From NCBI GenBank assembly GCA_964465575.1, contig CAYXIF010000003.1:52296-111589 (forward strand): a DNA stretch of 59,294 bases. Reading direction: 5' to 3'. Made by a program: the position numbers and the translations under genes. Below the pieces are notes generated by a model. The model ran no database searches. It had not been told where the DNA came from and saw only the letters and a program-made list of their open reading frames with translations. How positions within the stretch are numbered: position 1 is the stretch's first letter; each line of letters opens with the position of its first letter. Below are positions 9,071-57,928 of the stretch, in pieces. The DNA is from an uncultured Candidatus Bathyarchaeia archaeon. Lineage in GTDB: Archaea; Thermoproteota; Bathyarchaeia; Bathyarchaeales; DTEX01.

Positions 9071-9097
9071 CAAACACTCCGGAAAAGAGTGAACCGT

Positions 9098-17574: not shown

Positions 17575-17961
17575 ATGCCCTACTGCCCTAGATGCGGAAA
17601 ACTAGTGACCGAAGAACAGAAGTTCTGTCCAGACTGTGGCACAAACCTGAAGCCCGAGATAGGGCCAGCAGTAGCAGCTAGAGCTAGAAGAGTCGAGAAA
17701 AGAGAGAAGGAGGAGAAGGAGGAGAAGGAAGAAAAACGCGAGAAAGGAGAGAAGCATGAGAAGGAGGAGATGAGCCCAGCCGTCGCAGTAGCCTGTGGCA
17801 CATTTCTGGTCTTTCTTGGTGTGGTCTCCTTTCTAAGCTTGACGGGCATGGTCATTCTTCAGAATGTGTGGCCCTACATACTTTTGGTTCTCGGCGTTAT
17901 CATCATCTTGGCAGCAGTCTATGCTGGTGTAATAGCTTCGAAAAGGAGCCCTCGCACTTAG
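17575..17961 (+). CDS. Zinc-ribbon membrane protein with EK-rich linker and two TM helices
   Basis: CPRCG...KFCPDCG, EKREKEEKEEKEEKREKGEKHEKEE, two hydrophobic helices. Confidence 0.85.
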   Translation: MPYCPRCGKLVTEEQKFCPDCGTNLKPEIGPAVAARARRVEKREKEEKEEKEEKREKGEKHEKEEMSPAVAVACGTFLVFLGVVSFLSLTGMVILQNVWPYILLVLGVIIILAAVYAGVIASKRSPRT

Positions 17962-24064: not shown

Positions 24065-24880
24065 ATGTTCAAGTTAGGCGTGATTACCGATGAGATATCT
24101 CAGGATGTGGAGCGAGCCGCAGCTGTCTCCAAGGAGATGGGCTTGGACTGCATCGAGCTGCGTGGATGCTGGGGCAAGAACATCAAGGACCTAACAAACG
24201 CTGAGGTTCAAAGAATAAAGAAGATCGCCAAGGCTGCCGAATTACAGGTCATCTGCTTGGCCTCACCCTTTTTCAAGTGCACAATCGCTAACGAAGCCGA
24301 GGTCAAAGAACATCTTGACTTCCTTCCTAGACTGGCTGAGATGACAAAACTCTTTGACGCTGATATCATAAGGGGATTCGCCTTCTGGTCAACAGAGAAC
24401 CCCGCTCAACACTGGGAAAAGGCAATCATGAAGCTCCGCGAAGCCGCAGACATCTGTGAAGATGAAGGGATCATGCTAGCTCTTGAGAATGAACACGCGA
24501 CCCTAGTCGGTACTGGGAGAGAAGCTAGAATGGCCGTTGATGCTGTTGGTTCAAAAAGCCTGAGGATAGTCTGGGACCCGGGAAACGCCTTCTGTGCAGG
24601 AGAGATCCCCTGCCCAGAGGGGTACCTTCAAGTGCGAGGAGACACAGTTCATGTGCATGTGAAAGACGCTGTACGCGATATGGCCACTGGAAAGATCAGG
24701 TTTGTTGCAGTCGGAACAGGTGAGATAGACTACAGAAGTCAGTTCAAGGCATTAAGAGAGGATGGGTACGAAGGATGTGTGTCCATTGAGACTCATTATC
24801 GAATCCAAAACGACGGTGAGAAAAGCACAAGAGAAACATGTGCAAGCCTCAGAGGGCTCTTGAAGACGCTGAATCTTTGA
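24065..24880 (+). CDS. Sugar phosphate isomerase/epimerase (TIM barrel)
   Basis: LGVITDEISQD, LALENE, WDPGNA, HVHVKD, SIETH. Confidence 0.88.
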   Translation: MFKLGVITDEISQDVERAAAVSKEMGLDCIELRGCWGKNIKDLTNAEVQRIKKIAKAAELQVICLASPFFKCTIANEAEVKEHLDFLPRLAEMTKLFDADIIRGFAFWSTENPAQHWEKAIMKLREAADICEDEGIMLALENEHATLVGTGREARMAVDAVGSKSLRIVWDPGNAFCAGEIPCPEGYLQVRGDTVHVHVKDAVRDMATGKIRFVAVGTGEIDYRSQFKALREDGYEGCVSIETHYRIQNDGEKSTRETCASLRGLLKTLNL

Positions 24881-28240: not shown

Positions 28241-31200
28241 TTACAGCGTGCCTATGATTCTGTTCTTGTTCCTTGTCCAGTCCATAATTGCGTCGTGGAC
28301 GAAATCGATCGTTCTTTCGATTGTGCTCGCGGGCGTTCCCGGAACAGCAGGTTCCGTGGCAAGTCTCACGCGGTAGTAATCCTCTCTAGGGCTCTTTGTC
28401 AGAGACAGGCTGTTTCTGGTCTTTCTCTCTTCGCCTGTTCCCCCGAACCGGTAGCGGAATCTGATTTCCTTCACGAGTTCGCCTTTGACATTCTCGATCT
28501 CGGGCACGTTCTCGACATCATCGACACTCTCTAGCGTGCCCGTTTTCAGTTCATCGAGGCGGTCCAAGAAGAAGCCAATGAAGAACTCCTTCTCGCCTAG
28601 ACCCACCTTTACGGGCATGCTCAACTCTCTTCCCTGATAGACCTTGAATATCTCTTCCTTGCGGACCTTCGCCTTCTCCTCCGACAGTTTGAGGCGCTTG
28701 ACCTTCGATGGAGTATATGTGCTTACGGCCAACGCCGCAGGTCTGATGGATGAAAGCACAGATGCGGTTAACGCCAACGCGAAGCCGATCGCGCTCCACC
28801 ACCATTCCAGCTTCTCTCGTACCATGAGTTCCTGACCGAAGAGCACCATCACTCTGTAGAATCCCAACCCTAGTAAGTAACCGAGGCTACCGCCGACCAT
28901 GCCCAGAATTATGGCTTCAGCGACAAAGATCAGCCCTATGTGGGTCGGGTTCAGCCCAAGCATTGAAAGGGTCCTGATCTCCTTTCTCCGCTCGTAAACA
29001 GCATTCAGCATGACCATGCTGACGTTCAGCCCGACCATGACGAGCGGGATAATGAGCTCGGCTGCTCCCTTCATCTCGATGAAGGCGCCGATATGGTAGT
29101 ATGTGATGATCCTATTTGCCACAACAAAGACATCGAATTCCCATCCGTATATCAAGGTTCTCACCATTGAGTCAACGTCGACTGCAGCGCCGGGTTGAAA
29201 GACGATCTCAGAAATCACGGCGAATTCGGGCGCCCCCTCTGGGTGTCGGCTGGCGATAACTCCCTGAAGGGCCTCCGCGGTGTTCCAGCTTATCACCATG
29301 GTTTCTGTGTTGTTGCATCTTCTTACAGAGCCATCTGGAAGAAGCCGTGAAGGGCCAAGCGGGGAGCCATCCACGTCCACTAGACTCAGGTATCGGTCAT
29401 CATTGATCACCCCCTTAATGATAAAGCTTGTTGAAACTCTTGTCCCCAAAATCTCTGCGCTCACATTTTGACCTGTTGAGACGCCTAGGGTATCAGCTAT
29501 AGCTCTGCACAGTAGTACCTCGCCAATCTCGGTCTCGCCTAAGTAGCTGCCTTCGACCGCCTCGTCCAAGTTAGTATACATTGACTCAGCTGCCGGTGTT
29601 ACGCCAAGAACGCCGTAGATGAACCAAGTTTTCCCAGTTTTGGGGTCTGAGAGTCGAACGACTGGGTTGGGGCTAGGAATGTTCTTCAGCCTCACAGCAA
29701 TGTTCCTTATGTCAATTATCCGTGAAAGAACCTTGGCATCACTGGCCCCCAATGGCGAGAAGAGAAGCGAAGTTTCATTGAGCATCCTTTTCACGATTAT
29801 GCCGTCAGATGGCGCAGTTGCGGTCAGTCTGTCGGAGATGATGCCATACGCCGTCCCGAAGGAGGTCAACGAAGTAAAAGCCAGTATGAGGATGATTACG
29901 GATAGTATTGTAAAGAAACCCCGGATTTTTCGCCGTCTTATCTCCCGCTTCCCCATGGAGAAAATCAGTGCGATTGCACTTCTCCATGACACTTCTCCCT
30001 CTATCAGTCTCTCTCTCCAAACTCTAGGAAGACCAAAGATAATAGCTGAGACGCCAAGGAAAGATATTCCAGCAGACTGAAGGAAAAGCAGAACGTTCTC
30101 ATCAATCACTATGTGCGCGCCGGGGTAAGTAAAGTACAAGGAAACCAGAAAGATTGCATAGATTGCCACGCTTGCGAAAAGTTTTCTTCTCTTCTCCTCA
30201 AAGAAGAAGAAAGCCAGCACGGCGCTGAAGGCCGCCATGATCGCAGCTAGGTAGCCGGCGCTTGTCATGGCAATGAGCCGCATGCGGTCAAGAGCCAGTG
30301 AAACGACACGCATTATCCCTAGCACATCACGGAGGGTATTCCAGACCTCCAAGTAGTCGCGGTCCTCCTTTGCCCGCGTCAGGTCTGCACCAGCTTCAAG
30401 AATTCTTTGGTTGGCGGCTGTTAATGAGCGCCTCTCATCAAAGACTACAAAGCCGACGCCTTGTGCTGCGTTAACCGTACGCGAGACAACCACGAACTGC
30501 GCTTCAACATACCTGAGACCGCCTCTGAGGCTGTAGGCTGAGAGTTGGCTTGTAGCTCTGTGACCCTGAAGAAGAAAGAAAGGCAGCGAATCATTATACA
30601 GTCGGAAGGATTCGACCTCTATCCGTCCTCGTTCCCTTGCATAGAAGTAGGTCTGGGCTTCAAGAGTCACGGGTGTGTTCGCTGGAACGATCACGCACTG
30701 CCTGTCTAGACCCAGGAACCATCTGTGCTCTGAATCATAGTATGTGTCAAGGAAGGGTGCATTGAGCTTCTGCTCGCTTAGGACTTTGACGCGTAGGCTT
30801 TGTGCTCCTGGGCTCGAAGACCGAACAAGGTATGGTATACCCTCTAGCTCGATCAAGGCGCCGGGAACTAGTAAGAATGAGACTTGAGCTCCTTCAGGAA
30901 ACTCAACGAAAAGATCAACTTTAGGCGATGGAGCGTAGTCTATAGATCTCGATCCGAAGTCACCCTTGTATGCGTACAGCCTATACCAACGCTCCCGACC
31001 TACGTATGGTCCAGAGATTCTGTACTCTCCATTGTTGTCGGTGAAGTAGATTCCTGCGCCAACCTTTGGAGTGTCAAGGCTGTACAAATCCCACACTAGC
31101 ACTGTTGCATTCGGGATTGGGAGCCCAGTGTTTGCGTCGGCAACCTTGCCGTATATTGCGACCTCAGGTTGAGGAGCAGCAACGAGGGAACTCGCCATGA

Positions 31201-31270
31201 GGTTGGCAAGGGCTAGCAACAAAGTGACACTGGCGAGATACCTCAACCGGAAGGGCATGGCTGAAACCAT
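28241..31270 (-). CDS. Large MacB/FtsX-like permease with N-terminal carboxypeptidase-regulatory-like extracellular domain
   Basis: IYGKVADANTGLPIPNATV; SMGKREIRRRKIRGFFTILSVII; YERRKEIRTLSMLGLNPTHIGLIFVAEA. Confidence 0.85.
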   Translation of the reverse strand: MVSAMPFRLRYLASVTLLLALANLMASSLVAAPQPEVAIYGKVADANTGLPIPNATVLVWDLYSLDTPKVGAGIYFTDNNGEYRISGPYVGRERWYRLYAYKGDFGSRSIDYAPSPKVDLFVEFPEGAQVSFLLVPGALIELEGIPYLVRSSSPGAQSLRVKVLSEQKLNAPFLDTYYDSEHRWFLGLDRQCVIVPANTPVTLEAQTYFYARERGRIEVESFRLYNDSLPFFLLQGHRATSQLSAYSLRGGLRYVEAQFVVVSRTVNAAQGVGFVVFDERRSLTAANQRILEAGADLTRAKEDRDYLEVWNTLRDVLGIMRVVSLALDRMRLIAMTSAGYLAAIMAAFSAVLAFFFFEEKRRKLFASVAIYAIFLVSLYFTYPGAHIVIDENVLLFLQSAGISFLGVSAIIFGLPRVWRERLIEGEVSWRSAIALIFSMGKREIRRRKIRGFFTILSVIILILAFTSLTSFGTAYGIISDRLTATAPSDGIIVKRMLNETSLLFSPLGASDAKVLSRIIDIRNIAVRLKNIPSPNPVVRLSDPKTGKTWFIYGVLGVTPAAESMYTNLDEAVEGSYLGETEIGEVLLCRAIADTLGVSTGQNVSAEILGTRVSTSFIIKGVINDDRYLSLVDVDGSPLGPSRLLPDGSVRRCNNTETMVISWNTAEALQGVIASRHPEGAPEFAVISEIVFQPGAAVDVDSMVRTLIYGWEFDVFVVANRIITYYHIGAFIEMKGAAELIIPLVMVGLNVSMVMLNAVYERRKEIRTLSMLGLNPTHIGLIFVAEAIILGMVGGSLGYLLGLGFYRVMVLFGQELMVREKLEWWWSAIGFALALTASVLSSIRPAALAVSTYTPSKVKRLKLSEEKAKVRKEEIFKVYQGRELSMPVKVGLGEKEFFIGFFLDRLDELKTGTLESVDDVENVPEIENVKGELVKEIRFRYRFGGTGEERKTRNSLSLTKSPREDYYRVRLATEPAVPGTPASTIERTIDFVHDAIMDWTRNKNRIIGTL

Positions 31271-31446
31271 AGGATATACCGCCCTCAATCCTTTTAAAAG
31301 CTTTCTAGAAACCGCTTGTGGAAGTTTGTTGGACCATTGGAGGACAAGCTTACGCTCGAAGTCTACGCTAAGAGAGGATACTGCACTGCAACGAACGTTG
31401 GTGAGTGGCGGAATGGGGGGATCAGGAACCCTCATCGTTCACAAGA

Positions 31447-33345
31447 TCAGTAGGGCATGAGCCAAGTTGACCTAGATATGAGTCTCCATACACTGAGGAT
31501 GGTTGAGACTAACCCGTCTCCAATGAGCATGCCTATGACAACGAACCCCTTGTTCGCTTCCCAAAACCCGCCTCCTATGAACTTGCCGGCGGCAATGGAT
31601 AGCAGCGAGCCCGCGAATTGTGCAAGTGCAGCCCAAGGCGGCATTAACATGCCCGTCATCATGGCAATGGGAAACGACGGAATATGCAAAACCAAGTCGC
31701 AGACAAGGTAGAGAGCTGTGGAGATGCCGAAGCCCGTATACATCCATGTTGGTCTGAACAGGTATCCCGTCCAGAGCCAAGACTGCCAACGCCAGAAGTT
31801 CATGGCTTCCACTGGCCATGCAGAGATCGTGTAGGGATAAGCCCAGCCAGGTATGGGGTTCAGGCGCCAGAAAAGCGAGACGAATGTGAAGCTTCCTGCA
31901 AGTCCTAGTGCGATTATGAGGAAGAATGTCTTCGTGTACTCTTTCACGTCCACGCCCAGCATCGAGGCTTGGATGAGCTGCTGGCTTATGCCAGAACCGC
32001 CTAAGAACAAGGACATTTCAGACGGCAAGAACCATATGTCCAGCCCGCTGTAGCCGCTAGTGTAGATCAAGGTTTCACGAAGATATGGCAAGCTGAAGCC
32101 GCCACTAATACCCGCCGCGTGAGTCTGCAGGAGAGTGATCACAAACGATACTCCCAAAGTGAAGACCACCAAGACCCATACTGGAAAGCCTGGCACAAGA
32201 AGCAGCGTTAGGATGATTGCTGTTGCGGCTGTTGAAAGGTAGACTAACAGAAGCAATTTGCTATTGAGCCACTTCCCGCCAAACCCGCCAGTACGTTCCC
32301 TGATGCTTGCGAAGGCTCTAATGACTGTCTTGTGCTTGAGAAGAAGGGGGATTACGGCAACTGCTATACCCCACCCTATAGTGAAGCTATTCCAAAAGTA
32401 GAGCATCGACCTGCTATAGTGCCAGAAAACTCTCTGATTTGGAATCCATTGGCTCTCGACTGGCCAAAGACTGTTCTCTGTTATGTAGGTGTTGCCAAAA
32501 ACGTAGAGAGCAACACTTGCGATGAACTGAGCCGCAGTGTACTTAATATCTATGATAAAGCCCGGGAGATACAGTGTGAGATCAGTTGAGAACGAGAATG
32601 AAGCTCCTGGAAGTACGGTCTCCACGATGCTTGTGAATTCTACCAGAGTGCGTGGAACCAAAGGCACCGATATGAGGGTGGTGAGTCCATACGTTGCGAA
32701 CCCGTAGACAGCACCAGCCAAGATCGCCAGAGCAATGACCCTTATCCTACTTAAGTCTCTGTCTCCGAAAGACTTCATGGTTTTGGCGTCCCACGTTGCG
32801 AAAGGGAACTCCAGTTTTTCCTCTCGGGCATACAGACTGAAGGCAAAGAGCCCTAGAGTGTAGTTTGCTATGGCGGATAGTGAGATAGGTATGAAAACGC
32901 CAACCAAGATGGGCAGCGCCCAAGCCGCATCAAAGAACGTCCGGTTCATCATGGACCTAATGGCGTCATCCCCAAGAGGAGAAAAGAAACGAGGAACAGC
33001 GTGCTGGAGACCGAATATCTGCGCCACCTCAGAGTTGGCGAAGTATTGGTTGCGGAGCAGGTAAGCGAAGAAGTAGCCTGTGGCCATCAGACCAGTAGTC
33101 TCCATAGTTCGGATTATGAAAATCTCCTTTGAGGTGAGAGGCGATCCCAGCAGTCTTGTCAATCCCACCCAGAGCAAGATCACCGCCCAGCTGGTCAAAG
33201 CCAGACCCCAAAGACCTTCTACTAGCCAGTTGTATACAATGGCAGGCTGTATGATGAACACTATGAAGACGAACGCCATCATGGAGCGCCAAGTTAGACC
33301 TTTCTGTTCGGAGTGTATCTTCTCTAGAACCTCTGTCTCCCCCAC
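31447..33345 (-). CDS. OPT/YSL-like multi-pass membrane transporter
   Basis: LTWRSMM..., EKLEFPF motif, hydrophobic throughout; start overlaps the upstream stop. Confidence 0.65.
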   Translation of the reverse strand: MGETEVLEKIHSEQKGLTWRSMMAFVFIVFIIQPAIVYNWLVEGLWGLALTSWAVILLWVGLTRLLGSPLTSKEIFIIRTMETTGLMATGYFFAYLLRNQYFANSEVAQIFGLQHAVPRFFSPLGDDAIRSMMNRTFFDAAWALPILVGVFIPISLSAIANYTLGLFAFSLYAREEKLEFPFATWDAKTMKSFGDRDLSRIRVIALAILAGAVYGFATYGLTTLISVPLVPRTLVEFTSIVETVLPGASFSFSTDLTLYLPGFIIDIKYTAAQFIASVALYVFGNTYITENSLWPVESQWIPNQRVFWHYSRSMLYFWNSFTIGWGIAVAVIPLLLKHKTVIRAFASIRERTGGFGGKWLNSKLLLLVYLSTAATAIILTLLLVPGFPVWVLVVFTLGVSFVITLLQTHAAGISGGFSLPYLRETLIYTSGYSGLDIWFLPSEMSLFLGGSGISQQLIQASMLGVDVKEYTKTFFLIIALGLAGSFTFVSLFWRLNPIPGWAYPYTISAWPVEAMNFWRWQSWLWTGYLFRPTWMYTGFGISTALYLVCDLVLHIPSFPIAMMTGMLMPPWAALAQFAGSLLSIAAGKFIGGGFWEANKGFVVIGMLIGDGLVSTILSVWRLISRSTWLMPY

Positions 33346-36300
33346 TTTTCCTTCGCCTCTTTGATGTACCTCTGTTTCTCGTTAGGATCGAGCGCTCTCC
33401 ATATCAGGAATTGCTTCCGTATCTCATCGAGCAATGCCTTGTTGGAAGTAATCCATAGGTTCTCCACACCCATGGCTCTTTTTATAAGGATTTCGAAGCC
33501 GTAACGGTCAGCTGCCATCTGCCTGCAAACCACATGGAAGTCCTGAATTATGCCCGCATCAAAAGGCGAGAGCTGAAGACGAGCGCTGAGAACCCTTTCT
33601 TCGTCCCTATAGTGGAATCCCAAGGGCGCTAGGAGCATAAAGAGCCCAGTTCGTTCAGCCGCGGAGGCTTCAAGGAACTCTCTGAGGTAGTTCATAACGC
33701 CTAAGGATTCGTCTGGCGTCGCGTTGAACGGTAAGCCGACACTCCAACTGTCTCCAACTGGTTTGGTTCCGACCCTCCATTTTCTGATCAGCGAGGGTGT
33801 CACAAGTTTTGAGGCCTTCATCATGGGGTAAACCGAGGACAGCATTGTTGTTCCCATCATCACTCCGACAACGACGATGACGACTCCTGACGAAACATTG
33901 GGGATCAAGTCTTGTGGGAACAGCATCAAACCCCAGAGGATAGTGGTTATGCCAGCTCCGGACATATAGCCTAGAAAGCTCCCTAGGAAGGCTAGAGCTA
34001 CACTTTCCATGACGAAGATGGATCCAATGTGACGAGGAGAGAGCCCGACCGTGCTTAGGGTCGAGATCTCTCTTGTCCTTTCATACACGGCACTGAGCAT
34101 CATGGACAAGATGGTCAGAGAAGAGAGGAAAAGCGGCACAATCATGTTTTCTGCTCCGCTTAGTAAGTAGACGCTTCTTGTAGCGACCCTGCTCGCTACG
34201 TCCTCCTTCTTTAGACCGTAGTAGACATCGAAGGGCATTGCTAGAACCAGATCGAAGGACCGTTTCCGCAGACCATCCTCAAGAATCTGAGACTCAGACT
34301 GGAGCGAGATCGCGTTTGGCTGGGAGTTGAAAAATTCGACAGCAAAATCGTAGGGCACAAGTATCAAGCCGGAAACGTCGATTGGGGTTGCGACTCCTGT
34401 CAGAGATGTTCCGAGAGGGTCTGGCGGTCCAATGGGATTCTGATCTAGATCAACCTCCAGAAGAGTGGAGGCCACTTCTTCATCAAGGATTCCCATTATT
34501 GTGACCTGAATCCCATAGAGGCTAATCTTGGTGCCCGGCTTTACATCTATGCCCAGATCCCTGCTTAGGCCTTCAGCAAGAGTCTTGCTTATCATCACGG
34601 CCTTCGTCATCCCAGGAAGAAATGTAGTGCCTTGTCCAGGAACCACGGCGTACTCAAGAATTCTTGCTTCTTCAGCCGTTACTCCCAATAATCCTCTGAC
34701 CGCTGAATACTTAGACTCCCACACCATGACCATGCTCTGTCCAGGCGGATATATCCAAGCCCTGGGGTTTAGTTTAAAGTCTACTAGGCCTTCTGAGGCT
34801 ATGTCCTTGGTAGCTATGAGGTAATTTTCTGCAAGGGGGCTTCCTATGGCATCGGGCAGCGGTCTCTTGAGCAGGATACCCGTGTAAGCCGAAGAACCTA
34901 CTACGGCTCTGTAGGATTGAACCATAACGCCCATTGATGTAAATAGCGTCATTGCGGAGATTGTTATGACTATGGTTGACAGGGTGAGAGCTGTTCGCAT
35001 GGGTCGTTTCTTGAGGTTCTCGACTCCCATCGACAGGGAAGAGGCTAGCAGACTTCCCCTCTCAATGTCAGATCGGTGAGAGCCAAGTATCGACTCGCTT
35101 ATGGACTTCACAGCTGTGTTAAACTCGCCTACGATAACGTAGAAAAGTAGAATGGAGAACAGTATGACCGACAGCCCATCAACGAGCATCCAGATGTTTG
35201 AAGAAATGGCGTAGCCTGGGTGGACTAAGCTGAGAGCAAGGTTTGTTACCAAGAACAAGGCTACTGTTATCATCATCCGCCTTGTGCCAGTTACTCTCCC
35301 CGAGACGACTTTACCAAGGAGCAGGACGAATGCCGCGGAAAGGAAGAAGAAGAATATTGCTGTTCGTACAACGTCAAGTATGAGGTCAAACGAGGCATTG
35401 TAGACATTCAGCGCATTCTGCCAGCAAGCGATAGAGAACGAGTAGAGTCTCCCCTTGTCCCCATTCCTTAAGGCGTCCTCCGCCAGCTGCCGATACTTGT
35501 ACATTGCTTCGATGTGCAAGACCATCTTGGGGTTGGCTGACATCCTTGCCAGTAGGAAGCCTCCTCTAGCGTGAGCCAACCGATATATCCCGTCAATGGC
35601 ATCAAGAAGGGTCAAGGTCAGGGTCTCGCCATGTCTGAGAGTATATCCTTGACCATCAGGGTGATCGTCTGAAGCATCATTCATAACGGCAATCACGCGT
35701 CCCGCGCTTCTAACCAGTATCTCCGTAGGCACATCAGGTTCAACAAAGACCATGGCTTCAGGCCAGACCGCTAGGGTGTCTCGCCAAACAAAGTAGCTGT
35801 GTGAGATGAAGTTGTAGATTTCCACCGACAGAGCGCGCGGATCTTCAACCCTCAACGGATCGAACAAGCCCAGAAGAGCGATGGATGAACACTCGAAGAT
35901 CGGGATATACTGGCTTCCATGAGTGGTGTAAACGCTGAAGCTCCTTGCACCAGCGCCTGTTGCTATCAAGTAGCCTAAGCCACCTGCCCCGGGAGTAAGG
36001 GTAGGAGCTGCAGCAGAAGATGGCGCCCCAAAAAGTGAGCCGAGCTTCTTGCCAGTGCCAAAAGGCCCTGTATCCGTTGCGTGGGTTATACTTCCGGTTT
36101 CTGGTTCAAGGATGTATGCTTGCGCATCTATACCCGTAAGAGGCTTGACCCCTTTCAGGGTAGCTCTGCCGTTTGCGTCAGGCTTCAGGACAGCCGTGAA
36201 ACCGAGTGGCGCGCTCAACGTCATTCCTGTCACTCGCCCTCCTGGACCGGCGACCGGGGGCGCAGCAAACAGCCCAGCGGTTACTCCTTGCACAACAACG

Positions 36301-37994
36301 CTTTTCGAAGCTCCCACAGATGCTAATGGACTGAAGCCAGCGTACACTACAGCGTCAACAGGGTTCATGGATGGGCCTACGGACACAAAGTAGATTGCGT
36401 CTTTGTGAGCAAAGTCGTTGAACCAGTCTGTTGTGCTGTTGTACTGTGCAAGCCTTAGAGTTACTGTCACAAGCCCGTGATCTAGAGCCCCGGCTCTCCT
36501 AGGGTACAAGGCATAGTACACATCCATGCTTGCGGACTCGTACAGAATTGGCCACAGGAAGGTTGCTTGCTTTCGAAGGTTTTCTGGTTGTATCCTTTCG
36601 AATGTGTCGAAGGGTGTGTATTGATAGACCCTGAAGGCGTTTGTTGTGATAAACCCTAACCCTCCTGCATAGCAGGCTTCGGTGAAGACTTCAGCCTCGA
36701 AATATTTCAGAAATGACTCAAAAGGCGGAGCGGCGGCTATCCAAGTTGGCCTAGCCCATTGAATGCCGTCTATTACGTGGAACGTCTCACCTGTTCTCGC
36801 CTCAAGGGGAGGTAGCCATTCCTCAAAAATGCGTCTTAGCCAAAGATTGTACGACGGCACAAAGTCCTGAGGCCTATAGTACCCATACATCGCGCCCGTC
36901 GCGTACACGGCAAGAGTGTCGCTGTCGCTTGCGAGGTCGAGGCTCATCATCATCTTGATCTTAACCTCTAACTTGCTGAAATGGTTCTCCACGAACTCTC
37001 GAGCTCCCGCCAACGCTTGGTAATGCCCGGCAAAGGCAACAAGCCAAACGGTTCTCTTGGGAGGCGTCGCTCTCAGAAGCCTAGAAACTTCCAGTAGGAA
37101 CGCGACACCCATCGAGTCGGTTGCGCCAGGTGAAAGCTGGGGAACGGCAGACCACGAGTCATAGTAGGCGCCGATGACCGTCACTTCATTCTTCAGGGAC
37201 GGGTCGGTTCCTTCCACGATGGCGATGAGGTTTGCCACTTCCCTCTCTTTCCAGGCCATCATTGAGTCAACCCAGATCGTTACCTCTCTGTTCTTTGATG
37301 TGAGGTCTTTGAGAACTGACGCAGTCTCTCCCTTGACGTATAGCCTCGGGAAGTTGATGGGAACGCTGAACATCTTCTGAACAGACTGCATTCCCGTGGT
37401 GTCTTGAGGCTCTAGGAAGATCACACCTTTCGCCCCAAACAAGGCGGCGTTTTTCCAGTACCATCTGTGGTTGAATTCCATCAAGACGAAAGAACCTTCC
37501 GGGTCAATGCCTTCGAAGTCTTCTGGAAGCCCTCTATCAACGTAGACAAGCTTGTCGCCCTTCGCGGGGCTCCTATACGGTGAAGGGTTAACGTGGTTAG
37601 GCCAAAGTGGGTACGCTTCAAAAGTAGCCTTTGACCCCTCTAGGTTCTGGATTGTTACAAACGATCTCTCAACAAGCGGAGTCGCTAACCTGAAAGGCTC
37701 CTCTCGTACCTCAAGGCCTATCGAAGACCAGTAACTCCTAACGTATCTCGCAGCCTCAAAGAAGCCATCGTATCCAACAACGCGAGAACCAAGGCCAGAA
37801 AGGAATCTGACGTGCTGCAGGATGTTGCTTAAGTTGATCTGAGTTAGGTCGGCTGCTTCGGTGGTCAAGGAGCCGCTCGTCGAGAACGCCTTTACCGTCA
37901 AGGGTTCTTGAGCGACCAACGCGAGAAAGGCGAGGGCAAGCGTACAAAGGGTGACACACTGCAGACGAAACTCGGGTCGCATCATACCACCCAT
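33324..37994 (-). CDS. Giant PA/M28-like domain + MacB/FtsX-like permease fusion
   Basis: Signal peptide; GSRVVG; PA-like segment; IGAYYDS, PGATDS, AGHYQALAG, SLDL; SMGVENLKKRPMRTALTL; YERTREISTLSTVGLSP. Confidence 0.85.
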   Translation of the reverse strand: MGGMMRPEFRLQCVTLCTLALAFLALVAQEPLTVKAFSTSGSLTTEAADLTQINLSNILQHVRFLSGLGSRVVGYDGFFEAARYVRSYWSSIGLEVREEPFRLATPLVERSFVTIQNLEGSKATFEAYPLWPNHVNPSPYRSPAKGDKLVYVDRGLPEDFEGIDPEGSFVLMEFNHRWYWKNAALFGAKGVIFLEPQDTTGMQSVQKMFSVPINFPRLYVKGETASVLKDLTSKNREVTIWVDSMMAWKEREVANLIAIVEGTDPSLKNEVTVIGAYYDSWSAVPQLSPGATDSMGVAFLLEVSRLLRATPPKRTVWLVAFAGHYQALAGAREFVENHFSKLEVKIKMMMSLDLASDSDTLAVYATGAMYGYYRPQDFVPSYNLWLRRIFEEWLPPLEARTGETFHVIDGIQWARPTWIAAAPPFESFLKYFEAEVFTEACYAGGLGFITTNAFRVYQYTPFDTFERIQPENLRKQATFLWPILYESASMDVYYALYPRRAGALDHGLVTVTLRLAQYNSTTDWFNDFAHKDAIYFVSVGPSMNPVDAVVYAGFSPLASVGASKSVVVQGVTAGLFAAPPVAGPGGRVTGMTLSAPLGFTAVLKPDANGRATLKGVKPLTGIDAQAYILEPETGSITHATDTGPFGTGKKLGSLFGAPSSAAAPTLTPGAGGLGYLIATGAGARSFSVYTTHGSQYIPIFECSSIALLGLFDPLRVEDPRALSVEIYNFISHSYFVWRDTLAVWPEAMVFVEPDVPTEILVRSAGRVIAVMNDASDDHPDGQGYTLRHGETLTLTLLDAIDGIYRLAHARGGFLLARMSANPKMVLHIEAMYKYRQLAEDALRNGDKGRLYSFSIACWQNALNVYNASFDLILDVVRTAIFFFFLSAAFVLLLGKVVSGRVTGTRRMMITVALFLVTNLALSLVHPGYAISSNIWMLVDGLSVILFSILLFYVIVGEFNTAVKSISESILGSHRSDIERGSLLASSLSMGVENLKKRPMRTALTLSTIVITISAMTLFTSMGVMVQSYRAVVGSSAYTGILLKRPLPDAIGSPLAENYLIATKDIASEGLVDFKLNPRAWIYPPGQSMVMVWESKYSAVRGLLGVTAEEARILEYAVVPGQGTTFLPGMTKAVMISKTLAEGLSRDLGIDVKPGTKISLYGIQVTIMGILDEEVASTLLEVDLDQNPIGPPDPLGTSLTGVATPIDVSGLILVPYDFAVEFFNSQPNAISLQSESQILEDGLRKRSFDLVLAMPFDVYYGLKKEDVASRVATRSVYLLSGAENMIVPLFLSSLTILSMMLSAVYERTREISTLSTVGLSPRHIGSIFVMESVALAFLGSFLGYMSGAGITTILWGLMLFPQDLIPNVSSGVVIVVVGVMMGTTMLSSVYPMMKASKLVTPSLIRKWRVGTKPVGDSWSVGLPFNATPDESLGVMNYLREFLEASAAERTGLFMLLAPLGFHYRDEERVLSARLQLSPFDAGIIQDFHVVCRQMAADRYGFEILIKRAMGVENLWITSNKALLDEIRKQFLIWRALDPNEKQRYIKEAKEKWGRQRF

Positions 37995-38357
37995 GTGTGC
38001 GGTACAATCCGTATGAGTTTCTGTACTGTTCTAGGAACGTCGGAATATAAGGGTCTTGTCTCGTATTTATTGCTTCTCTTACTTCCAATGTTGCCGTTGC
38101 TGGAGGATAAGGACTCTGCGGGGCGTTGTTGGGGGCTTGCCATTATTTGGGCATGTCCAGACTTAATCAAGTTATGTGGAGCGAGCTGATTACAGATGTT
38201 GCAGATCCTTGATGCATGACCAAGACCACCTGAAACTCTGAGAGATGTGCCTTTCTGGTCGAGATTGTCTCTGATACGGTTGGGATACCACTGTCGCTAA
38301 TCTTAAATACTAAGAGGTCGAGAGCTATATCTTGCCAAAAGAATACTGGGTTGTGAA

Positions 38358-40355
38358 GTGAAAATGGCCGAAGAAGTCAAAAGCGCTTTAACACCAAAAC
38401 TATGGGTAACGTTGATAGTGATCTCTGCGGTCATGAGCTTCGTAGGTGTTCTAACAGCTCCATTTGCTCCAAGCTGGGCTTGGTCAACGATCTTCGGGTC
38501 TTTCACAGCGCCACTCGTCACGTTGTTCATCGTGCTGGTCATCTCAAAAATAGCCAGTCCCTTCACAAAGGCATTGACCCCACAGAAACTGGCTCTGTTG
38601 TACACGGTGACAGCAATGTCCGTCGTCTTCTGCTGGAGCTGGATCCCCTATGGCATAGTGCACAACGCTGTGAACATGCGATTCTTCTTGTTCGATTGGC
38701 ATCCTGGAACCACTGCCGTGGCCAAGCAAATCGTGTTCGGTCCGCTCAACCGTGATGCTGTGCTGCCGATTCTGACAGGTGGAGTCTCTACGCCGTGGGG
38801 TGATTGGGCACCCTTCCTAGGCTGGTGGTTGGCGTACACAGTACTGTGGCTGCTCTTTTGGGTCGGATGGTTGGCTCTGCTTCAAGAGAGATGGATTGAG
38901 GTGGAGAAGCTTCCGTTCCCAGCCGCTCTGACCGGAACGATGCAGATCGGGTTGGCGACGAAGTCGGAGAAGATGGAGACTGAAGGGAGACTCAAGTTCT
39001 TCATGCTTGGATTCGTGATAGGAGCGGTGGTCATCCTGCCAGTGATCGCACGGGCATTGAACCGAGCGATACCTGACCTGTACGGCTGGACAGCAACACC
39101 TTACTTACCATGGTTCTTGGGCACAATAAGCGTAGGCAACCTTCCTGCTTTCAGGGCAATTCCAGTATGGTCCTTCCTGCCAGTGAACCCAATGATCTAC
39201 GCCCTCTTCTACCTCTTCCCAGCGAAGATCCTGTTCTCCATATGGTTCTTCTCGCTGGTAGGCGTGCTGATCCCAAGCCAACTCGCCTACTATATGGGCT
39301 ACTACACGGCGCTTGCAGAGCAGGCGGATCGATTCCATGGATTCATGGGAGGCGAACCCTTCAAGTGGATTGGCGTGTGGATTGGGTCTTTCGTGGGCCT
39401 GATCCTTACGTGGTTTGCACTCAACCTATCGTACATGAGAAGCCTACTCAGAAAGCCCGTTGAGCCAGAGAAGAAAGCCATCCCATATATGTTGGGTCTG
39501 CTGATGATCGTGGTATCAACTGTTGCTCTCATCGCCTTACTCTTGGTAGCAGGGGTCCACCCGTTGGGCACACTGATTATCGTATTCACAATGTGGGTGC
39601 TCTACCTTTCAACGGTTAGAGTCTACGGTTTCGCTAGCATCACTGGCACTGCCTGGGGCTCTCCAATAGACTGGTCTCACTACCCATTCCTGCTGAAGCA
39701 TCTCTTCATCCCTGATCCGCGCACAAGGAACGCCGTGATCTCAACAACGATGCAGATGGGTAACAGGTGGACAGGAGAGCTGATGGGTGAGAACAACACA
39801 CAGTGGGGCATGGTTTTCGCGATCCCGATGTGTTACAAGGTAGGATACGACACTGGAACCCACCCGCGAGACATCACAAAGCTAGTCTTGGTTTCGGGCA
39901 TCATCTCAGCTCTCATAGGTTACCCAACTGCCGTGTGGTTTGGCTACGCATATGGCACGAACAACACTCCAATGACGCTATTCGACGCTTGGTGGCTATG
40001 GACATTCGACCAGCCTTGGGGTGACATCGCCACGATTGGCGCCAATGAGCCTCTATGGCCTCACATAATCGCAGGCATCGTCTTGACACTGGTACTGAGC
40101 GTTCTGAACTTCCGTTTCCTGTGGTGGCCTCTGGATCCTGCGGGTGTTGCCTTGGCTCTAGGCGCGGCCGGAACTGGATGGCTCATCCCAGGCCTGCTTG
40201 CATGGGTAGTAAAGACACTGGTTCTCAGAACAGGCGGCACAAAGCTCAACGACAGAGTAGTGACACCAATCGTTGTCGGGCTACTTGTAGGCTACTGGTT
40301 TATCATGTTCCTAGGAGCCTTCCTAGGACTGATCCAGTTCTTCCTACCAAAGTAG
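38358..40355 (+). CDS. OPT-like (DUF6785/DUF6784-like) multi-pass membrane transporter
   Basis: 665 aa hydrophobic; ERWIEVEKLPFP motif shared with the 31447 protein; WWPLDPAGVA C-terminal motif. Confidence 0.6.
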   Translation: MKMAEEVKSALTPKLWVTLIVISAVMSFVGVLTAPFAPSWAWSTIFGSFTAPLVTLFIVLVISKIASPFTKALTPQKLALLYTVTAMSVVFCWSWIPYGIVHNAVNMRFFLFDWHPGTTAVAKQIVFGPLNRDAVLPILTGGVSTPWGDWAPFLGWWLAYTVLWLLFWVGWLALLQERWIEVEKLPFPAALTGTMQIGLATKSEKMETEGRLKFFMLGFVIGAVVILPVIARALNRAIPDLYGWTATPYLPWFLGTISVGNLPAFRAIPVWSFLPVNPMIYALFYLFPAKILFSIWFFSLVGVLIPSQLAYYMGYYTALAEQADRFHGFMGGEPFKWIGVWIGSFVGLILTWFALNLSYMRSLLRKPVEPEKKAIPYMLGLLMIVVSTVALIALLLVAGVHPLGTLIIVFTMWVLYLSTVRVYGFASITGTAWGSPIDWSHYPFLLKHLFIPDPRTRNAVISTTMQMGNRWTGELMGENNTQWGMVFAIPMCYKVGYDTGTHPRDITKLVLVSGIISALIGYPTAVWFGYAYGTNNTPMTLFDAWWLWTFDQPWGDIATIGANEPLWPHIIAGIVLTLVLSVLNFRFLWWPLDPAGVALALGAAGTGWLIPGLLAWVVKTLVLRTGGTKLNDRVVTPIVVGLLVGYWFIMFLGAFLGLIQFFLPK

Positions 40356-40373
40356 GCAACCACACCCTCCCCC

Positions 40374-40381
40374 TTTTTTTT
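40374..40381 (+). terminator. Archaeal oligo-T terminator
   Basis: T8 run 19 nt after the stop codon. Confidence 0.5.
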
Positions 40382-40728
40382 AGTTGCTCAGCAAACACAC
40401 TGGGCCAAGCCATCTGGACATCGCATTCTAGATTCGGCTTTGCTTTCTGCTCACTGATCGTTCATACTTGGCTAAGTGGACGATCAGAGGTTTTCCAGAT
40501 GGATTGTGGTGCCCTCTCCGCTTGACCAAGAGGAGGCTTGAGCAAGGTCGGCTCAAAGGTTAGATTCAACAGTATTCGCGTGATGGTTTCGACGGCATGC
40601 GACGGCGTCCAGCCTTTAGTCAAGTCTTCCCAGCTGAAAAAGAGGAGACTGGAATCTTGACAGAAACCTGCACAAGTATCACTGGATTCACCCCACGCTC
40701 AAAACCATTAATTCTGGCTGACAATGCT

Positions 40729-42183
40729 CTATGGCTTGATACGCGTCTTGGCCCGACCTCTTACAACCATGTACCCAACAGCCGCAGCGACAGCCGCTGC
40801 TGCTCCTATTGCCACATAAAGCCATGGGAACCCTTCTCCCAGAGGGGTCAGAGTGACTTGCGGCACCACATTTACTGTCTGAACGCTTGGTATCACCGAG
40901 CCGCCGAATTGAATTCCTTGGTTAGGCGGTGTTGAAGGCCAGTGCAACACTTGGATGATCACATTCTTGTCAGTAACGATCTTGTGCGATCCAGGATGAG
41001 TCAGCGCAAAGTAGGTGTGGGGTTGTATTGGTCGGGATACGTCGTCTATTGTCACCTTTGTAAGCTCGCTTGCGAAAACATATGCCTCCACATTGGATTC
41101 CGTAGGTAGGAAGAACGCAGTTTCTTCATTAGCCTTCACTCCTATATAGGCGACTCCGGACCCGTACGCACCGTACATTTCGAGCAACAGCCTACGAATG
41201 CTGCCGTTGTGGATGAAGGTCACTGTGACTGGCTTGTCGCTTTGCATTATGAACGCTTCTGCTTTGGGCTTGACTCCGATGCTGCCTCCTCCCTTGACGG
41301 CGACCTCCTCAAGTTTCTGTTTCGTTTCTAGGTTCCATACTGATACTTTTGCATCACTTGTGGCAGAAATCTGGAACCCATAACCCTCAACGCTATCCCA
41401 ATCTGTAGTCGATCCCGAGTAGAAGACCTTTCCAACGAAACCTCCTTCAGCAGAGGGCACAGCGTAGCTTCGGCGTGCATCGTATCGTCCTCCGATTGCG
41501 CCACATTGGATCATGATGGCGCCTGTCGACTCAACCTTGTATGCTCTGAAGGGCTTCAACATGAGGCGCTGAAACGAATTGGGCTGGAGCGTGTAGACGT
41601 TTTGAGAACCATCTTCCCCTGTCACCGTGACTCGGGAGTTCTCCAAAGCGAAGATAATGTAAGGTGTTCCACCAAGCTGAGAAGCTATGAAAACAAACTT
41701 TCTACCGACGTAGGCGCCGTCTGTCGCTGTGTAGTAGGTGCTTGGGAGAGGGCCTTCTGAGGCGTTGGAGGCAGGAATCCCCCCGCTTAGTAAGGCAACG
41801 CTGACTACGCGGTCTGACGTGACCTTGAAGATTGAGCCATTAGGGAACAATGCATAATGCTTCTCCATGCTGTTAAGATTGGCCTGAGACACCAAACGGC
41901 CGTCGGGAAGTGAGTAGACCTGAACATTCGTGTTGCCTTCCGAAGCGATAATCGCAACTAGACCAGAGCTTCCTTCTGTGCCGTTAACCAGTAGCCAACC
42001 TGAACTGAGGTTGTTCATATCATCGAGCTCCATCCGGTGGATCTTGGCGGGCACAACCCCATAGTAAGTGTACTGTTCAACGGAGCCATCAAGAGAAGTT
42101 GACACGAGGCAGGAAGCCAGCAGCAGAACGACAGAGAAAAGGTGAGCCGCGCGGTCAAAAAGCAAGCGGTTCTTTCCCGACAC
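40729..42183 (-). CDS. Secreted, C-terminally anchored beta-rich surface protein (IgGFc-binding-domain-like)
   Basis: N-terminal signal; repeated IA.E..T.V.V / KV.SD..V.V units; C-terminal TM helix plus basic tail (VRGRAKTRIKP). Confidence 0.6.
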   Translation of the reverse strand: MSGKNRLLFDRAAHLFSVVLLLASCLVSTSLDGSVEQYTYYGVVPAKIHRMELDDMNNLSSGWLLVNGTEGSSGLVAIIASEGNTNVQVYSLPDGRLVSQANLNSMEKHYALFPNGSIFKVTSDRVVSVALLSGGIPASNASEGPLPSTYYTATDGAYVGRKFVFIASQLGGTPYIIFALENSRVTVTGEDGSQNVYTLQPNSFQRLMLKPFRAYKVESTGAIMIQCGAIGGRYDARRSYAVPSAEGGFVGKVFYSGSTTDWDSVEGYGFQISATSDAKVSVWNLETKQKLEEVAVKGGGSIGVKPKAEAFIMQSDKPVTVTFIHNGSIRRLLLEMYGAYGSGVAYIGVKANEETAFFLPTESNVEAYVFASELTKVTIDDVSRPIQPHTYFALTHPGSHKIVTDKNVIIQVLHWPSTPPNQGIQFGGSVIPSVQTVNVVPQVTLTPLGEGFPWLYVAIGAAAAVAAAVGYMVVRGRAKTRIKP

Positions 42184-42449
42184 GTTCCATCCCCTTGAAA
42201 AATAATGCGAATGTAACTTTATTAAACTTGCTGCAGGACCTGCTGAGAATAGCCTTCATATGGTCCTATGATTGGTTCTTTGGGCTCAGTTCCTTCCAAG
42301 GAAGCTGCCATGGGCGCGTTACCGCGAAACCGAAGAGACATCTTGCTTAACTACATGTCTGCTCTTTTCTCAATATTGAGGGTGTGTGGAGTCGGTTCGC
42401 GCGAAAACCATTTTAGGTTTGGGTCTGAACTTATTGTTAGGCGATCTAC

Positions 42450-43733
42450 ATGGCTAAGGTTACCTTCATCGGTGCCGGAAGCGTCGTCTTCGCCAGCCGA
42501 TTGCTTAGCGACATTCTTTATCACCCTGAACTGCAAGAGTTCACGATCTCTTTGATGGACATCAATGCCGAACGTCTAAAGCTAATCGATCAGCTCGCGC
42601 ACATCACAGTGTCCAAACATGCACCAAAGGCGAAGGTCGAGTCCACACTGGACCGAAAGGAAGCACTGAAGGATTCAGACTACGTGATCATCATGATCCA
42701 AGTCGGAGGGCTCGAAGCCTTCGAACATGACATAAACATACCTCTCAAATACGGCATAAACCAGGAAGTCGGAGATACGCTTGGACCTGGAGGCGTCTTC
42801 CGTGGATTAAGAACAATCCCGGTTCTGGTAGACATCTGCCGCGACATGGAGAGCCTATGCCCTGACGCTCTTCTGATCAACTATGCCAATCCTATGGCCA
42901 TAAACTGCTGGGGCATGAACAAGGCTATGGGAACCAAGAATGTTGGGCTTTGCCACAGTGTGCAAGGAACAGCGATGCGGCTAGCGAGGTACATCAATGT
43001 GCCCTATGAGGATGTCTCTTACTGGGTCGCGGGGATCAACCATCAAGCCTTCTTTCTCGAATACGATTACAAAGGCAAAGACGCTTATCCACTTCTGCGA
43101 GAGGCCATGAAGAAGGAGGAAGTCTACAGCAAGGACCGCGTTCGCTGGGAGATGATGAAGCACCTAGGTTACTTCATAACCGAATCCAGCCACCACTTGG
43201 GCGAGTACGTGCCGTATTTCCGCACTACAGAAGAAAGGCGCAAGACCTACTGCGAGCCCCGATGGTTCTATCTAGAGATCTGCAAGAACGCCTGGAAACC
43301 TCACTACGAAAGAATTGAAAAGCAGATCAGGGGCGAAGAACCCATCACGTTAGGCAGATCCGATGAGTACAGCGTCGACATCATCCTCTCAATGGAGACT
43401 GGTCACCCTTGCAGAATAAACGGCAACGTCGAGAACATGGACTTGATAACCAACCTTCCGGATGGATGCTGTGTTGAGGTTCCATGTCTAGTCGATGGGA
43501 ATGGAATCCACCCATGCAACGTAGGCAACCTTCCATCCCAATGCGCAGCCCTGAACAGGACTAGCATAAACGTGCAGGAACTGGCTGTCAAAGCGGTCCT
43601 AGAAAAGGACCGCACAGCTGCACTGCAGGCGGTCATGTTCGACCCGCTAACATCAGCTCTTCTAACCCCTAGAGAGATTGAGAAAATGGTCAATGAGATG
43701 TTCAAAGCCGAGGCCCAGTGGCTCAGCTTCTGA
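42450..43733 (+). CDS. melA: Glycoside hydrolase family 4 (NAD+/Mn2+-dependent alpha-galactosidase/glucosidase-like)
   Basis: FIGAGSVVF, GDTLGPGG, NYANPM, GLCHSVQG, AGINH, VEVPC. Confidence 0.9.
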   Translation: MAKVTFIGAGSVVFASRLLSDILYHPELQEFTISLMDINAERLKLIDQLAHITVSKHAPKAKVESTLDRKEALKDSDYVIIMIQVGGLEAFEHDINIPLKYGINQEVGDTLGPGGVFRGLRTIPVLVDICRDMESLCPDALLINYANPMAINCWGMNKAMGTKNVGLCHSVQGTAMRLARYINVPYEDVSYWVAGINHQAFFLEYDYKGKDAYPLLREAMKKEEVYSKDRVRWEMMKHLGYFITESSHHLGEYVPYFRTTEERRKTYCEPRWFYLEICKNAWKPHYERIEKQIRGEEPITLGRSDEYSVDIILSMETGHPCRINGNVENMDLITNLPDGCCVEVPCLVDGNGIHPCNVGNLPSQCAALNRTSINVQELAVKAVLEKDRTAALQAVMFDPLTSALLTPREIEKMVNEMFKAEAQWLSF

Positions 43734-47250: not shown

Positions 47251-47797
47251 GTCGTCAAAGTCCATTGAGCCTTGGCAAACGGCGGAGATTGCTGGTCCGA
47301 AGAGGGCCCAAGTTGTGGTCAAGCCAGAAGTGGTCTCTGCGTTGCTGAGGCGCGCCGAGAAGCCAATCCTCATTGTTGGGCACGAAGCTGCCGAGATTCA
47401 ACTCAAAAAGGGGAAACTCGTTGACTACATAATCCGTGTTGCTGAGAACGCGAGGATTCCGGTCGTTGCTACGGCTCACATGCAGGGCGAGTTTCTTGGT
47501 CGAGGCTTTCTCGTAGATTCTTGGATGCCTGTGGTTGACATAGCGAATAGGCTCACGGACCGCGACTGGAGGGGGCTGGATGGCAAGGGTCCGTACGACC
47601 TCGCCCTCTTCGTGGGGCTTCCCTACTACGTAGAATGGCTCATCCTCTCCGGCATCAAACACTTCTCGGATGATCTCAAGACGGTGTCTTTGGGCAAGCA
47701 TTATCAGCCGCATGCTTCATGGTCATTTCCGAATCTATCCGACGATGACTGGGAAGAGAACCTTGAAGCCATTGTGAGAGAACTGGGGGAAAGATAG
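47243..47797 (+). CDS. cdhB: ACDS epsilon subunit
   Basis: PWQTAEIAGP, GLDGKGPYDL, WSFPN. Confidence 0.95.
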   Translation: MTRSSKSIEPWQTAEIAGPKRAQVVVKPEVVSALLRRAEKPILIVGHEAAEIQLKKGKLVDYIIRVAENARIPVVATAHMQGEFLGRGFLVDSWMPVVDIANRLTDRDWRGLDGKGPYDLALFVGLPYYVEWLILSGIKHFSDDLKTVSLGKHYQPHASWSFPNLSDDDWEENLEAIVRELGER

Positions 47798-47798
47798 A

Positions 47799-49208: not shown

Positions 49209-49213
49209 GCCTC

Positions 49214-50461: not shown

Positions 50462-50474
50462 GAGGCACGAAAGA

Positions 50475-57766: not shown

Positions 57767-57928
57767 TGTCCCCACTGTTAGTGGCGATGTTCTAAGGGTT
57801 AGAGGGACTTGATTCATTTGAAACAACAGAGCGAGAGGTGCCGTATGGCGTTGAGGAAGGGAGGCTTAAAGACAGGAAAAGAGGACGGCGAACGTCCATC
57901 AGACAGAGGGTTATGGGAGGATGAACCT

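Follow-up and report, generated by a model that had tools for sequence, protein, structure and literature searches.

Proteins of the FtsX/MacB fold are textbook ATP-driven mechanotransmitters, and a locus that encodes two of them next to carrier genes, with no gene for an ATP-binding cassette (ABC) ATPase in sight, raises the question of what such proteins do there and what might drive them. The locus lies in a 59,294-nucleotide stretch of an uncultured Candidatus Bathyarchaeia archaeon (hereafter the window). An earlier note, made from the DNA letters, had proposed that two giant MacB/FtsX-type proteins, two OPT-like carriers, an anchored surface protein and a GH4 glycosidase cooperate there in the uptake and processing of glycans or glycopeptides. 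Open reading frame (ORF) calling and Pfam/NCBIfam scans recovered all six genes at the coordinates given in that note, and we refer to them as FtsX_A, FtsX_B, MP1 and MP2 (the carriers), SP and GH4 (Table 1). Our analyses show that three of them, FtsX_B, MP1 and MP2, travel together through several archaeal phyla, unaccompanied by an adjacent ABC ATPase gene. This module matters because proteins of the FtsX/MacB fold are thought to need ATP.

The evidence for a module comes from 30 loci, the window included, which were scored with profiles built from the families of the window, the scan using a closer subset of MP1 relatives. They derive from Bathyarchaeia, Thermofilaceae, a Desulfurococcales-like Thermosphaera metagenome-assembled genome (MAG), Baldrarchaeia and Asgard archaea (Heimdallarchaeota and Hodarchaeales). 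Among the 28 loci that include upstream DNA, 26 have FtsX_B directly upstream of MP1 and in the same orientation, the two being separated by -32 to +24 nt, and the pairing is kept from Bathyarchaeia to Heimdallarchaeota at FtsX_B identities down to ~28%. In the window, as already noticed, the start of the first carrier gene overlaps the stop of the larger FtsX gene: the GTG start of MP1 and the FtsX_B stop (33324-33326) overlap by 22 nt, and this -22 nt geometry is found again in four other loci. The rule is broken twice, by a divergent pair (locus L001) and by a frameshifted copy (L020). In the latter, from a Bathyarchaeota MAG, positions 5319-11957 hold FtsX_B in three pieces and MP1 in two, reflecting either decay of the module or assembly errors. 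MP2 occurs in 24 of the 30 loci, most of the others being short or truncated contigs. SP homologues are found in 11 (with up to four copies in one, L010) and FtsX_A in six, while GH4 is absent from all 29 loci other than the window and was rejected as part of the module for this reason. These counts define FtsX_B, MP1 and MP2 as the conserved unit, with FtsX_A and SP as accessories and GH4 as a neighbor. The co-occurrence expected by the earlier note is therefore real and takes the form of a tightly packed module; its four-protein complex of two FtsX and two OPT-like proteins is not the conserved unit, and its inclusion of the glycosidase has to be abandoned. A recurrence in 30 loci from several phyla of archaea puts the arrangement far beyond chance. 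That these genes are mere neighbors with unrelated functions, a view to which the variability of GH4, SP and the second FtsX gene lends something, is highly improbable in our opinion, given that the overlapping or near-abutting FtsX_B-MP1 frames are kept across phyla while their flanks are completely reshuffled.

Both FtsX proteins belong to the MacB/FtsX fold and are paralogous (26% identity over 541 aa, E 2e-25), in agreement with the earlier note, which had seen two related proteins of ~1010 and 1556 aa; the alignment spans the MacB-like domain region of FtsX_B from transmembrane helix 1 (TM1) to TM2. FtsX_B scores above the Pfam cut-offs for FtsX (53.3 bits against 25.5), MacB_PCD (27.3 against 27) and Peptidase_M28 (52.1 against 21.3), and FtsX_A above that for FtsX (43.2 bits against 25.5). 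An AlphaFold (AF2) model of FtsX_B residues 860-1556 (pLDDT 82.6) matched Spr0694-0695, MacB, LolC/E, HrtB, YbbP and BceB with a Foldseek probability of 1.0 and E-values of 1e-10 to 1e-4, the structure entries 5XU1 and 5GKO as well as LolCDE and HrtBA being among the matches of this probability. The FtsX_A reading frame extends over 28241-31435(-) and 1064 aa; since its first 54 codons are not conserved in homologues, the protein probably starts at M55 (31273; ~1010 aa). Hydropathy and the AlphaFold model indicate a common plan for the two proteins: an N-terminal signal/TM segment, a large ectodomain and three extra TM helices, followed by an amphipathic helix, TM1, a beta-rich periplasmic domain, TM2, a coupling helix, TM3, TM4 and a cytoplasmic tail of ~150 aa. 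Their ectodomains are of different kinds, that of FtsX_B consisting of a PA plus M28-like pseudo-peptidase and a further beta-rich part and that of FtsX_A being CarboxypepD_reg-like; FtsX_A has the same TM layout and a C-terminal tail of its own. The FtsX_B family comprises at least 332 clusters, whose members databases label "ABC-type antimicrobial peptide transport system permease" and "M28 family peptidase".

FtsX_B has the same 4-TM FtsX module as the type VII ABC systems (MacB, LolCDE, FtsEX, HrtBA, BceAB, YbbAP and Spr0694-0695 of S. pneumoniae), in which TM1 and TM2 are separated by a large extracytoplasmic domain and TM2 is followed by the coupling-helix signature. It differs from them in having no fused or linked ATPase and an OPT-fold carrier as obligate gene partner, in an N-terminal ectodomain of 850 aa that includes a dead PA/M28 region, in three additional TM helices, and in a family-specific cytoplasmic tail after TM4. 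Orphan FtsX permeases without ATPase genes, of unexplained function and energy source, are on record (PMC3914696). These acidobacterial duplicated orphan permeases (ADOP, TIGR03434), likewise FtsX/MacB-periplasmic-domain proteins not paired with an ATPase gene (PMC3914696), are the top, if weak, NCBIfam match of the window proteins. The latter are nevertheless not ADOP members, because they score 32.5 and 29.3 bits against a cut-off of 622. ADOP proteins are bacterial, carry two FtsX modules per chain and have neither M28 domain nor tail nor OPT partner, whereas each of the window proteins has a single module.

The earlier note had seen no ABC ATPase gene in the window and had named three findings that would speak against it: a routinely adjacent MacB-type ATPase in homologous loci, a failure of the genes to co-occur in other genomes, and unconfirmed OPT-like folds. 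None of these was observed. Pfam detected no ABC_tran domain in the larger ORFs of the window (most of those of at least 150 aa). When all six frames were scanned for motifs, Walker A matched at three places, two of which lie in CooC/MinD-type genes, and in no frame of the window was a Walker A motif accompanied by a matching ABC signature. An "LSGGE" at 59216 was rejected as a hint of an ABC ATPase: it belongs to a small signal-peptide-like ORF at the window edge that lacks Walker A. Across the 30 loci, any ABC ATPase, by motifs or by ABC_tran, is present within the flanks of two and adjacent to the module in neither; one is 2.2 kb away on the opposite strand (L023), the other at the edge of its locus, three genes away (L003). 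ABC_tran is not among the 25 commonest families of the 144 flanking ORFs.

The cytoplasmic tail of FtsX_B follows TM4 directly and, in the AF2 model, occupies the face on which a nucleotide-binding domain would dock. It has a beta-alpha-beta5-alpha2 layout and belongs to no Pfam family; relaxed Pfam searches (E-value limit 10) with both tails, SP and the middle ectodomain returned noise only. A full-library search with the FtsX_B tail found at least 1138 representative clusters, defined at 50% identity, 554 of them at E<=1e-10. The domain is C-terminal in all 150 matches listed, and most of the full-length proteins among these measure ~1410-1750 aa. The tails of FtsX_A and FtsX_B have no BLASTP similarity to each other, and the order of their secondary-structure elements looks alike.

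At the other end of FtsX_B, the N-terminal ectodomain matches PA-domain M28 aminopeptidases (2EK8 at E 2e-10; YwaD, 6HC6) and also the transferrin receptor, with which it has the PA-then-M28 domain order in common. The Peptidase_M28 match covers only positions 1-105 of the 193 of the profile. Compared with 2EK8, HHDS has become YYDS, EE has become HY and the last His is a Tyr, so that the catalytic Glu and three of the five metal ligands are replaced. We counted the active-site columns in 119 full-length family members: the position of the catalytic Glu is His in 116 and the Glu-Glu pair is kept in none, the ligand Glu is Tyr or Trp in 102, the first His ligand is Tyr in 99 and the last His ligand is unconserved, while the two Asp ligands are both retained. 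The replacing residues (Tyr, His, Tyr/Trp) are themselves conserved. This loss of the site throughout the family led us to reject an active M28 peptidase; it fits a role in binding and not in hydrolysis, and it means that, as far as catalysis is concerned, the database label "M28 family peptidase" is probably wrong. The transferrin receptor, which we take to be likewise a PA/M28 protein that has lost its catalytic machinery, would be a parallel, the difference being that the domain of FtsX_B is fused to a MacB-type membrane module. One may still imagine a peptidase with an altered metal site that digests peptides for uptake by the OPT-like carriers, since Pfam gives the M28 match 52 bits and the retained Asp ligands could bind a metal together with the conserved replacing His and Tyr. 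Bathyarchaeia and Thermofilaceae are, moreover, reputed peptide users. OPT proteins with a fused peptidase domain have also been described (PMC3061005). We regard such an enzyme as very unlikely, because the general-base Glu is gone in 119 of 119 members, the last His position is unconserved and no peptidase families are enriched among the neighboring genes. Both the dead M28 domain and the family-specific tail had been missed by the earlier note.

The carriers carry the next part of the argument. The sequence of MP1 has no match in Pfam, NCBIfam or the PDB, and its relation to known transporters appeared through its structure. The AlphaFold model, built on 24 homologues (pLDDT 86.4, pTM 0.87), has barley YS1 (HvYS1; 7WST and 7WSR) as its only significant PDB neighbors, with E-values of 8e-10 and 8e-9, probability 1.0 and TM-scores of 0.63-0.66, the next Foldseek match having an E-value of 0.08. 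Six of the 24 MP1 relatives match PF03169 (OPT) weakly at E<=1 (best 9e-5), and precomputed OPT matches are on record for a few relatives. MP2 is a clear member of the DUF6785/DUF6784 family (51.9 bits against a cut-off of 25 and 47.9 against 26.4, respectively). MP1 and MP2 have no similarity by BLASTP, and their profiles align over 567 columns with 98.5% probability and E 2.4e-15 (hhalign); judged from these profiles, they are distant paralogues. An EKLxFP motif occurs in both, at residue 176 of MP1 and 183 of MP2. The earlier description of the two as twin OPT-like proteins is thus justified at the level of fold and superfamily, as MP1 resembles HvYS1, the profiles align and EKLxFP is common to both; the OPT fold of MP2 is assigned through its homology to MP1. 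Their size of ~630-670 aa also fits prokaryotic OPT subclusters (PMC3061005). They are nonetheless very distant from the characterized OPT/YSL family (TC 2.A.67, PF03169): identity to HvYS1 is 14-16%, neither protein has a PF03169 match above threshold, and the OPT motifs NPG and KIPPR (PMC3061005) are absent from both, KIPPR-like motifs being absent also from all 47 aligned relatives. Against the PDB, neither sequence nor profile searches yielded a useful match for MP1, MP2, SP or the ectodomain of FtsX_A. HvYS1 is a dimeric carrier of the elevator type that works as a proton symporter (PMC9691689). The characterized OPT/YSL carriers are likewise proton symporters and act as importers (PMC9691689, PMC3061005).

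On this basis we tentatively propose that the module may be a proton-driven capture-and-uptake system with the FtsX proteins as receptor or scaffold, a reading that we find plausible, if somewhat short of probable. FtsX_B, probably a dimer like all MacB-type proteins, would not be an ATP-driven motor; it would serve as a receptor or scaffold outside the cytoplasm and, in the space beneath the S-layer, bind an oligomeric nutrient by means of its dead PA/M28 ectodomain and its MacB periplasmic domain. The OPT-like carriers, which might form an MP1/MP2 heterodimer in analogy to the HvYS1 dimer, would then receive the nutrient and import it at the expense of the proton gradient. The tail may take the structural place of the missing nucleotide-binding domain, and FtsX_A and the anchored SP proteins would be optional extra capture subunits.

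Several points weigh against this proposal. As of a 2011 review, no prokaryotic OPT homologue had been characterized (PMC3061005), and our literature searches found no paper mentioning DUF6785. The substrate assignment is weak because the flanking genes are mostly variable housekeeping genes. The FtsX signature between TM2 and TM3 is still conserved (consensus VYERxREI), which is what continued docking of a nucleotide-binding domain at this place would lead one to expect. An ABC ATPase may also be encoded elsewhere in the genome, shared in-trans ABC ATPases being known for sugar importers. Finally, the strand and helix order of the FtsX_B tail, together with weak Foldseek matches, recalls START/helix-grip folds (E ~0.03, not significant), a resemblance that would suit a role with envelope lipids better than nutrient uptake.

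The conserved signature and the possibility of a distant ATPase lead to the most serious competitor, a conventional type VII ABC machine in which a shared ABC ATPase drives FtsX_B, alone or together with FtsX_A, in trans and which would use mechanotransmission to move or activate its extracellular domains for extrusion, extraction or surface remodeling, with the carriers as functionally linked partners. All characterized FtsX-fold proteins recovered by the fold search work with ATPases, gene databases annotate the family as ABC permease subunits, and the ADOP precedent, with its own unresolved energy source, can be read in the same sense. Against it stand the scarcity of ABC ATPase genes within 6-10 kb (the two non-adjacent cases mentioned above), the conserved 150-aa domain placed right after TM4 on the nucleotide-binding-domain face, and the fact that the fixed partner is a secondary carrier gene instead. 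We therefore keep it as a minority possibility, which deserves serious attention.

The START-like character of the tail would fit a different machine, in which the OPT-like proteins export a component of the surface or else a molecule that is lipid-linked or otherwise amphipathic, the FtsX proteins extract or present this cargo at the outer face, as LolCDE does with lipoproteins, and the helix-grip-like tail binds a lipid moiety. The closest structural relatives of FtsX_B do include LolCDE and the heme exporter HrtBA, weak matches of the tail to START/SRPBCC lipid-binding folds reach a probability of up to 0.99 at E ~0.03, many loci lie among housekeeping and not catabolic genes, and the wide distribution of the module and its conservation in several phyla are what one would expect of a core function of the cell. 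These START-like matches, however, do not reach significance and extend over only a part of a model with several domains, the characterized OPT/YSL carriers import (PMC9691689, PMC3061005), and bacterial DUF6785 genes reside in glycan-degradation loci. Such envelope building or export seems to us quite unlikely.

The genomic context gives further clues about what the capture-and-uptake system proposed above might import. The 144 flanking ORFs belong mostly to unrelated and variable housekeeping families (e.g., Pus10, rRNA methylase and DUF655). The commonest metabolic families among them are sugar-related, namely AP_endonuc_2 (7), UxuA (4), PfkB (3), GlcNAc 2-epimerase (2), GH38 (2) and TrmB (2), and a GH5 gene is found inside the module in one locus (L004). 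DUF6785 genes of bacteria have no FtsX partner and occur in glycan-degradation loci, between polysaccharide lyase or sialidase genes and sugar-acid enzymes and sometimes as tandem pairs, whereas the archaeal ones are tied to the FtsX_B-MP1 pair; in such lyase and glycosidase loci an importer is to be expected. This context leans towards glycan-derived oligomers as substrate, and domain ancestry (an aminopeptidase fold and oligopeptide carriers) would equally allow peptides. The glycan or glycopeptide substrate of the earlier note accordingly did not gain firmer ground than such loose gene context.

Some individual loci can be described further. On a Gemmatimonadetes contig (PBWH01000009.1; L026, 8001-11952), two DUF6785-type genes stand in tandem after genes for heparinase II/III-like and amidohydrolase proteins and before GFO/GH109 and SGL genes; no Pfam match is on record for the second of the pair. 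This is a bacterial twin-carrier arrangement, with no FtsX gene present. Genes of the URO-D family (methyltransferase/decarboxylase fold) occur in or around the module in two distant loci (L029, 3194-4264; L033, 1-324, 3062-4162 and 16872-19441), the second of which also has SBP_bac_5 and aminotransferase genes near the module. These neighbors hint that some copies of the module may serve something other than sugar use. The window itself contains a cluster for sugar or sugar-acid catabolism at 848-10531, with three GFO/IDH/MocA oxidoreductases, a xylose-isomerase-like TIM barrel and an enolase-superfamily (MR_MLE) dehydratase, interleaved with purL and purQ; a second AP_endonuc_2 gene, of the family that is commonest beside the module in other genomes, lies at 24065-24880.

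The fold families of the parts of this module are known. What is new is the combination of its genes, the tail domain, and the fact that the whole family has lost the peptidase site as well as the link to an ATPase, and literature searches with DUF6785, DUF6784, their Pfam accessions and archaeal M28 plus FtsX returned no description of it. If the FtsX fold works here without ATP, this would be new in kind, and the family, with its at least 1138 tail-bearing clusters, offers a concrete and testable case. The boldest form of the idea is that a MacB/FtsX-fold mechanotransmitter lives permanently without an ATPase, coupled physically and energetically to proton-driven elevator-type carriers of the OPT fold, its tail being a dimer clamp that replaces the nucleotide-binding domain. 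We consider it doubtful in this full form; if true, it would be the first system of the type VII ABC fold run by a proton gradient, or passively as the receptor of a secondary carrier. The module also gives a first functional handle on DUF6785/DUF6784 and reveals a new and very divergent branch of the OPT superfamily undetected by Pfam. Both database labels carried by the FtsX_B family, that of a peptidase and that of an antimicrobial peptide permease, are probably misleading, which bears on metagenomic claims of extracellular peptidase potential in Bathyarchaeia and their relatives. Found in both Thermoproteota and Asgard archaea, the module is likely to be an ancient and important component of the surface biology of archaea.

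Table 1. Coordinates of the module, its domains and its neighbors in the window.
Feature	Position	Strand	Description	Basis
FtsX_A	28241..31273 (likely start M55)	-	~1010-aa accessory paralogue of FtsX_B	Pfam, hydropathy, homologue alignment
MP1	31447..33345	-	632-aa OPT/YSL-fold polytopic carrier	AF2 model, Foldseek
FtsX_B	33324..37994	-	1556 aa, core gene of the module	Pfam, hydropathy, AF2, Foldseek
Cytoplasmic C-terminal tail of FtsX_B	33327..33797	-	aa 1400-1556	AF2, Foldseek, full-library search
MacB/FtsX-type module of FtsX_B	33831..34994	-	aa 1001-1388	Pfam MacB_PCD and FtsX; Foldseek
Three extra TM helices of FtsX_B	35130..35360	-	aa 879-955, before the FtsX module	Hydropathy; AF2 helices
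PA and M28-like domain of FtsX_B	36525..37835	-	aa ~54-490	Alignment to 2EK8 and 6HC6
Intergenic region FtsX_B/MP2	37995..38357	.	363 bp, divergent	ORF coordinates
MP2	38358..40355 (likely start ATG at 38364)	+	DUF6785/DUF6784 polytopic protein	Pfam
SP	40729..42183	-	484-aa beta-rich anchored protein	Hydropathy
GH4	42450..43733	+	Alpha-galactosidase	Pfam, NCBIfam

The order of the remaining genes agrees with the earlier note, which had described a divergent second OPT-like gene followed by an anchored beta-rich surface protein and a GH4 glycosidase: MP2 is transcribed divergently from FtsX_B, the region between them presumably holding a shared control region, and SP and GH4 come next. SP has an N-terminal hydrophobic signal/TM segment and a C-terminal TM anchor, and no Pfam or PDB match. 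GH4 is recognized by both Pfam domains of its family (214.5 and 203 bits) and by the NCBIfam alpha-galactosidase model PRK15076 (595.8 bits against a cut-off of 486).

By its gene content, the window is archaeal and Bathyarchaeia-like. It carries an operon for the five-subunit acetyl-CoA decarbonylase/synthase (44899-51914), RtcB and an ERCC4 nuclease, and the nearest relatives of the genes studied here are found in Bathyarchaeia and Thermoproteota MAGs. Adjoining the acetyl-CoA synthase operon, at 54992-57472 (-), an 826-aa fusion joins an ADP-forming acetyl-CoA synthetase-like part (CoA-binding, Succ_CoA_lig and ATP-grasp) to a C-terminal GNAT acetyltransferase, which is the architecture of Pat-type protein acetyltransferases. 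At 17958-19094 (-), an archaeal protein is encoded that resembles GH3 proteins in matching their N-terminal domain; this family consists of acyl-acid amido synthetases and is known from plants.

Two tRNA genes were detected: a tRNA-Ala at 13154, called by both ARAGORN and Rfam, and a 78-nt tRNA-His at 9119-9196, called by ARAGORN at a place where the Rfam tRNA model stays below its gathering score. In a stretch of low GC content (0.47) just after tRNA-Ala, inspection of the translations by eye revealed a likely VapBC-type toxin-antitoxin pair at 13318-13909 (+), formed by an AbrB/SpoVT-like antitoxin ORF of 68 aa that overlaps a PIN-like ORF of 137 aa; a fragment ORF with YD repeats (RHS-like) is found at 14362-14808. 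The 10-bp periodic repeat TACCTTTTTC forms two intergenic arrays of inverted orientation, one of ~7 units at 15355-15436 (+) and one of ~5 units at 57720-57767 (-), each with ~70 bp of similar sequence beside it (10 matches against 0.06 expected by chance). Placed 42 kb apart, these arrays bracket the module and the cdh operon, and may represent bent DNA (phased T-tracts) or an element specific to the lineage.

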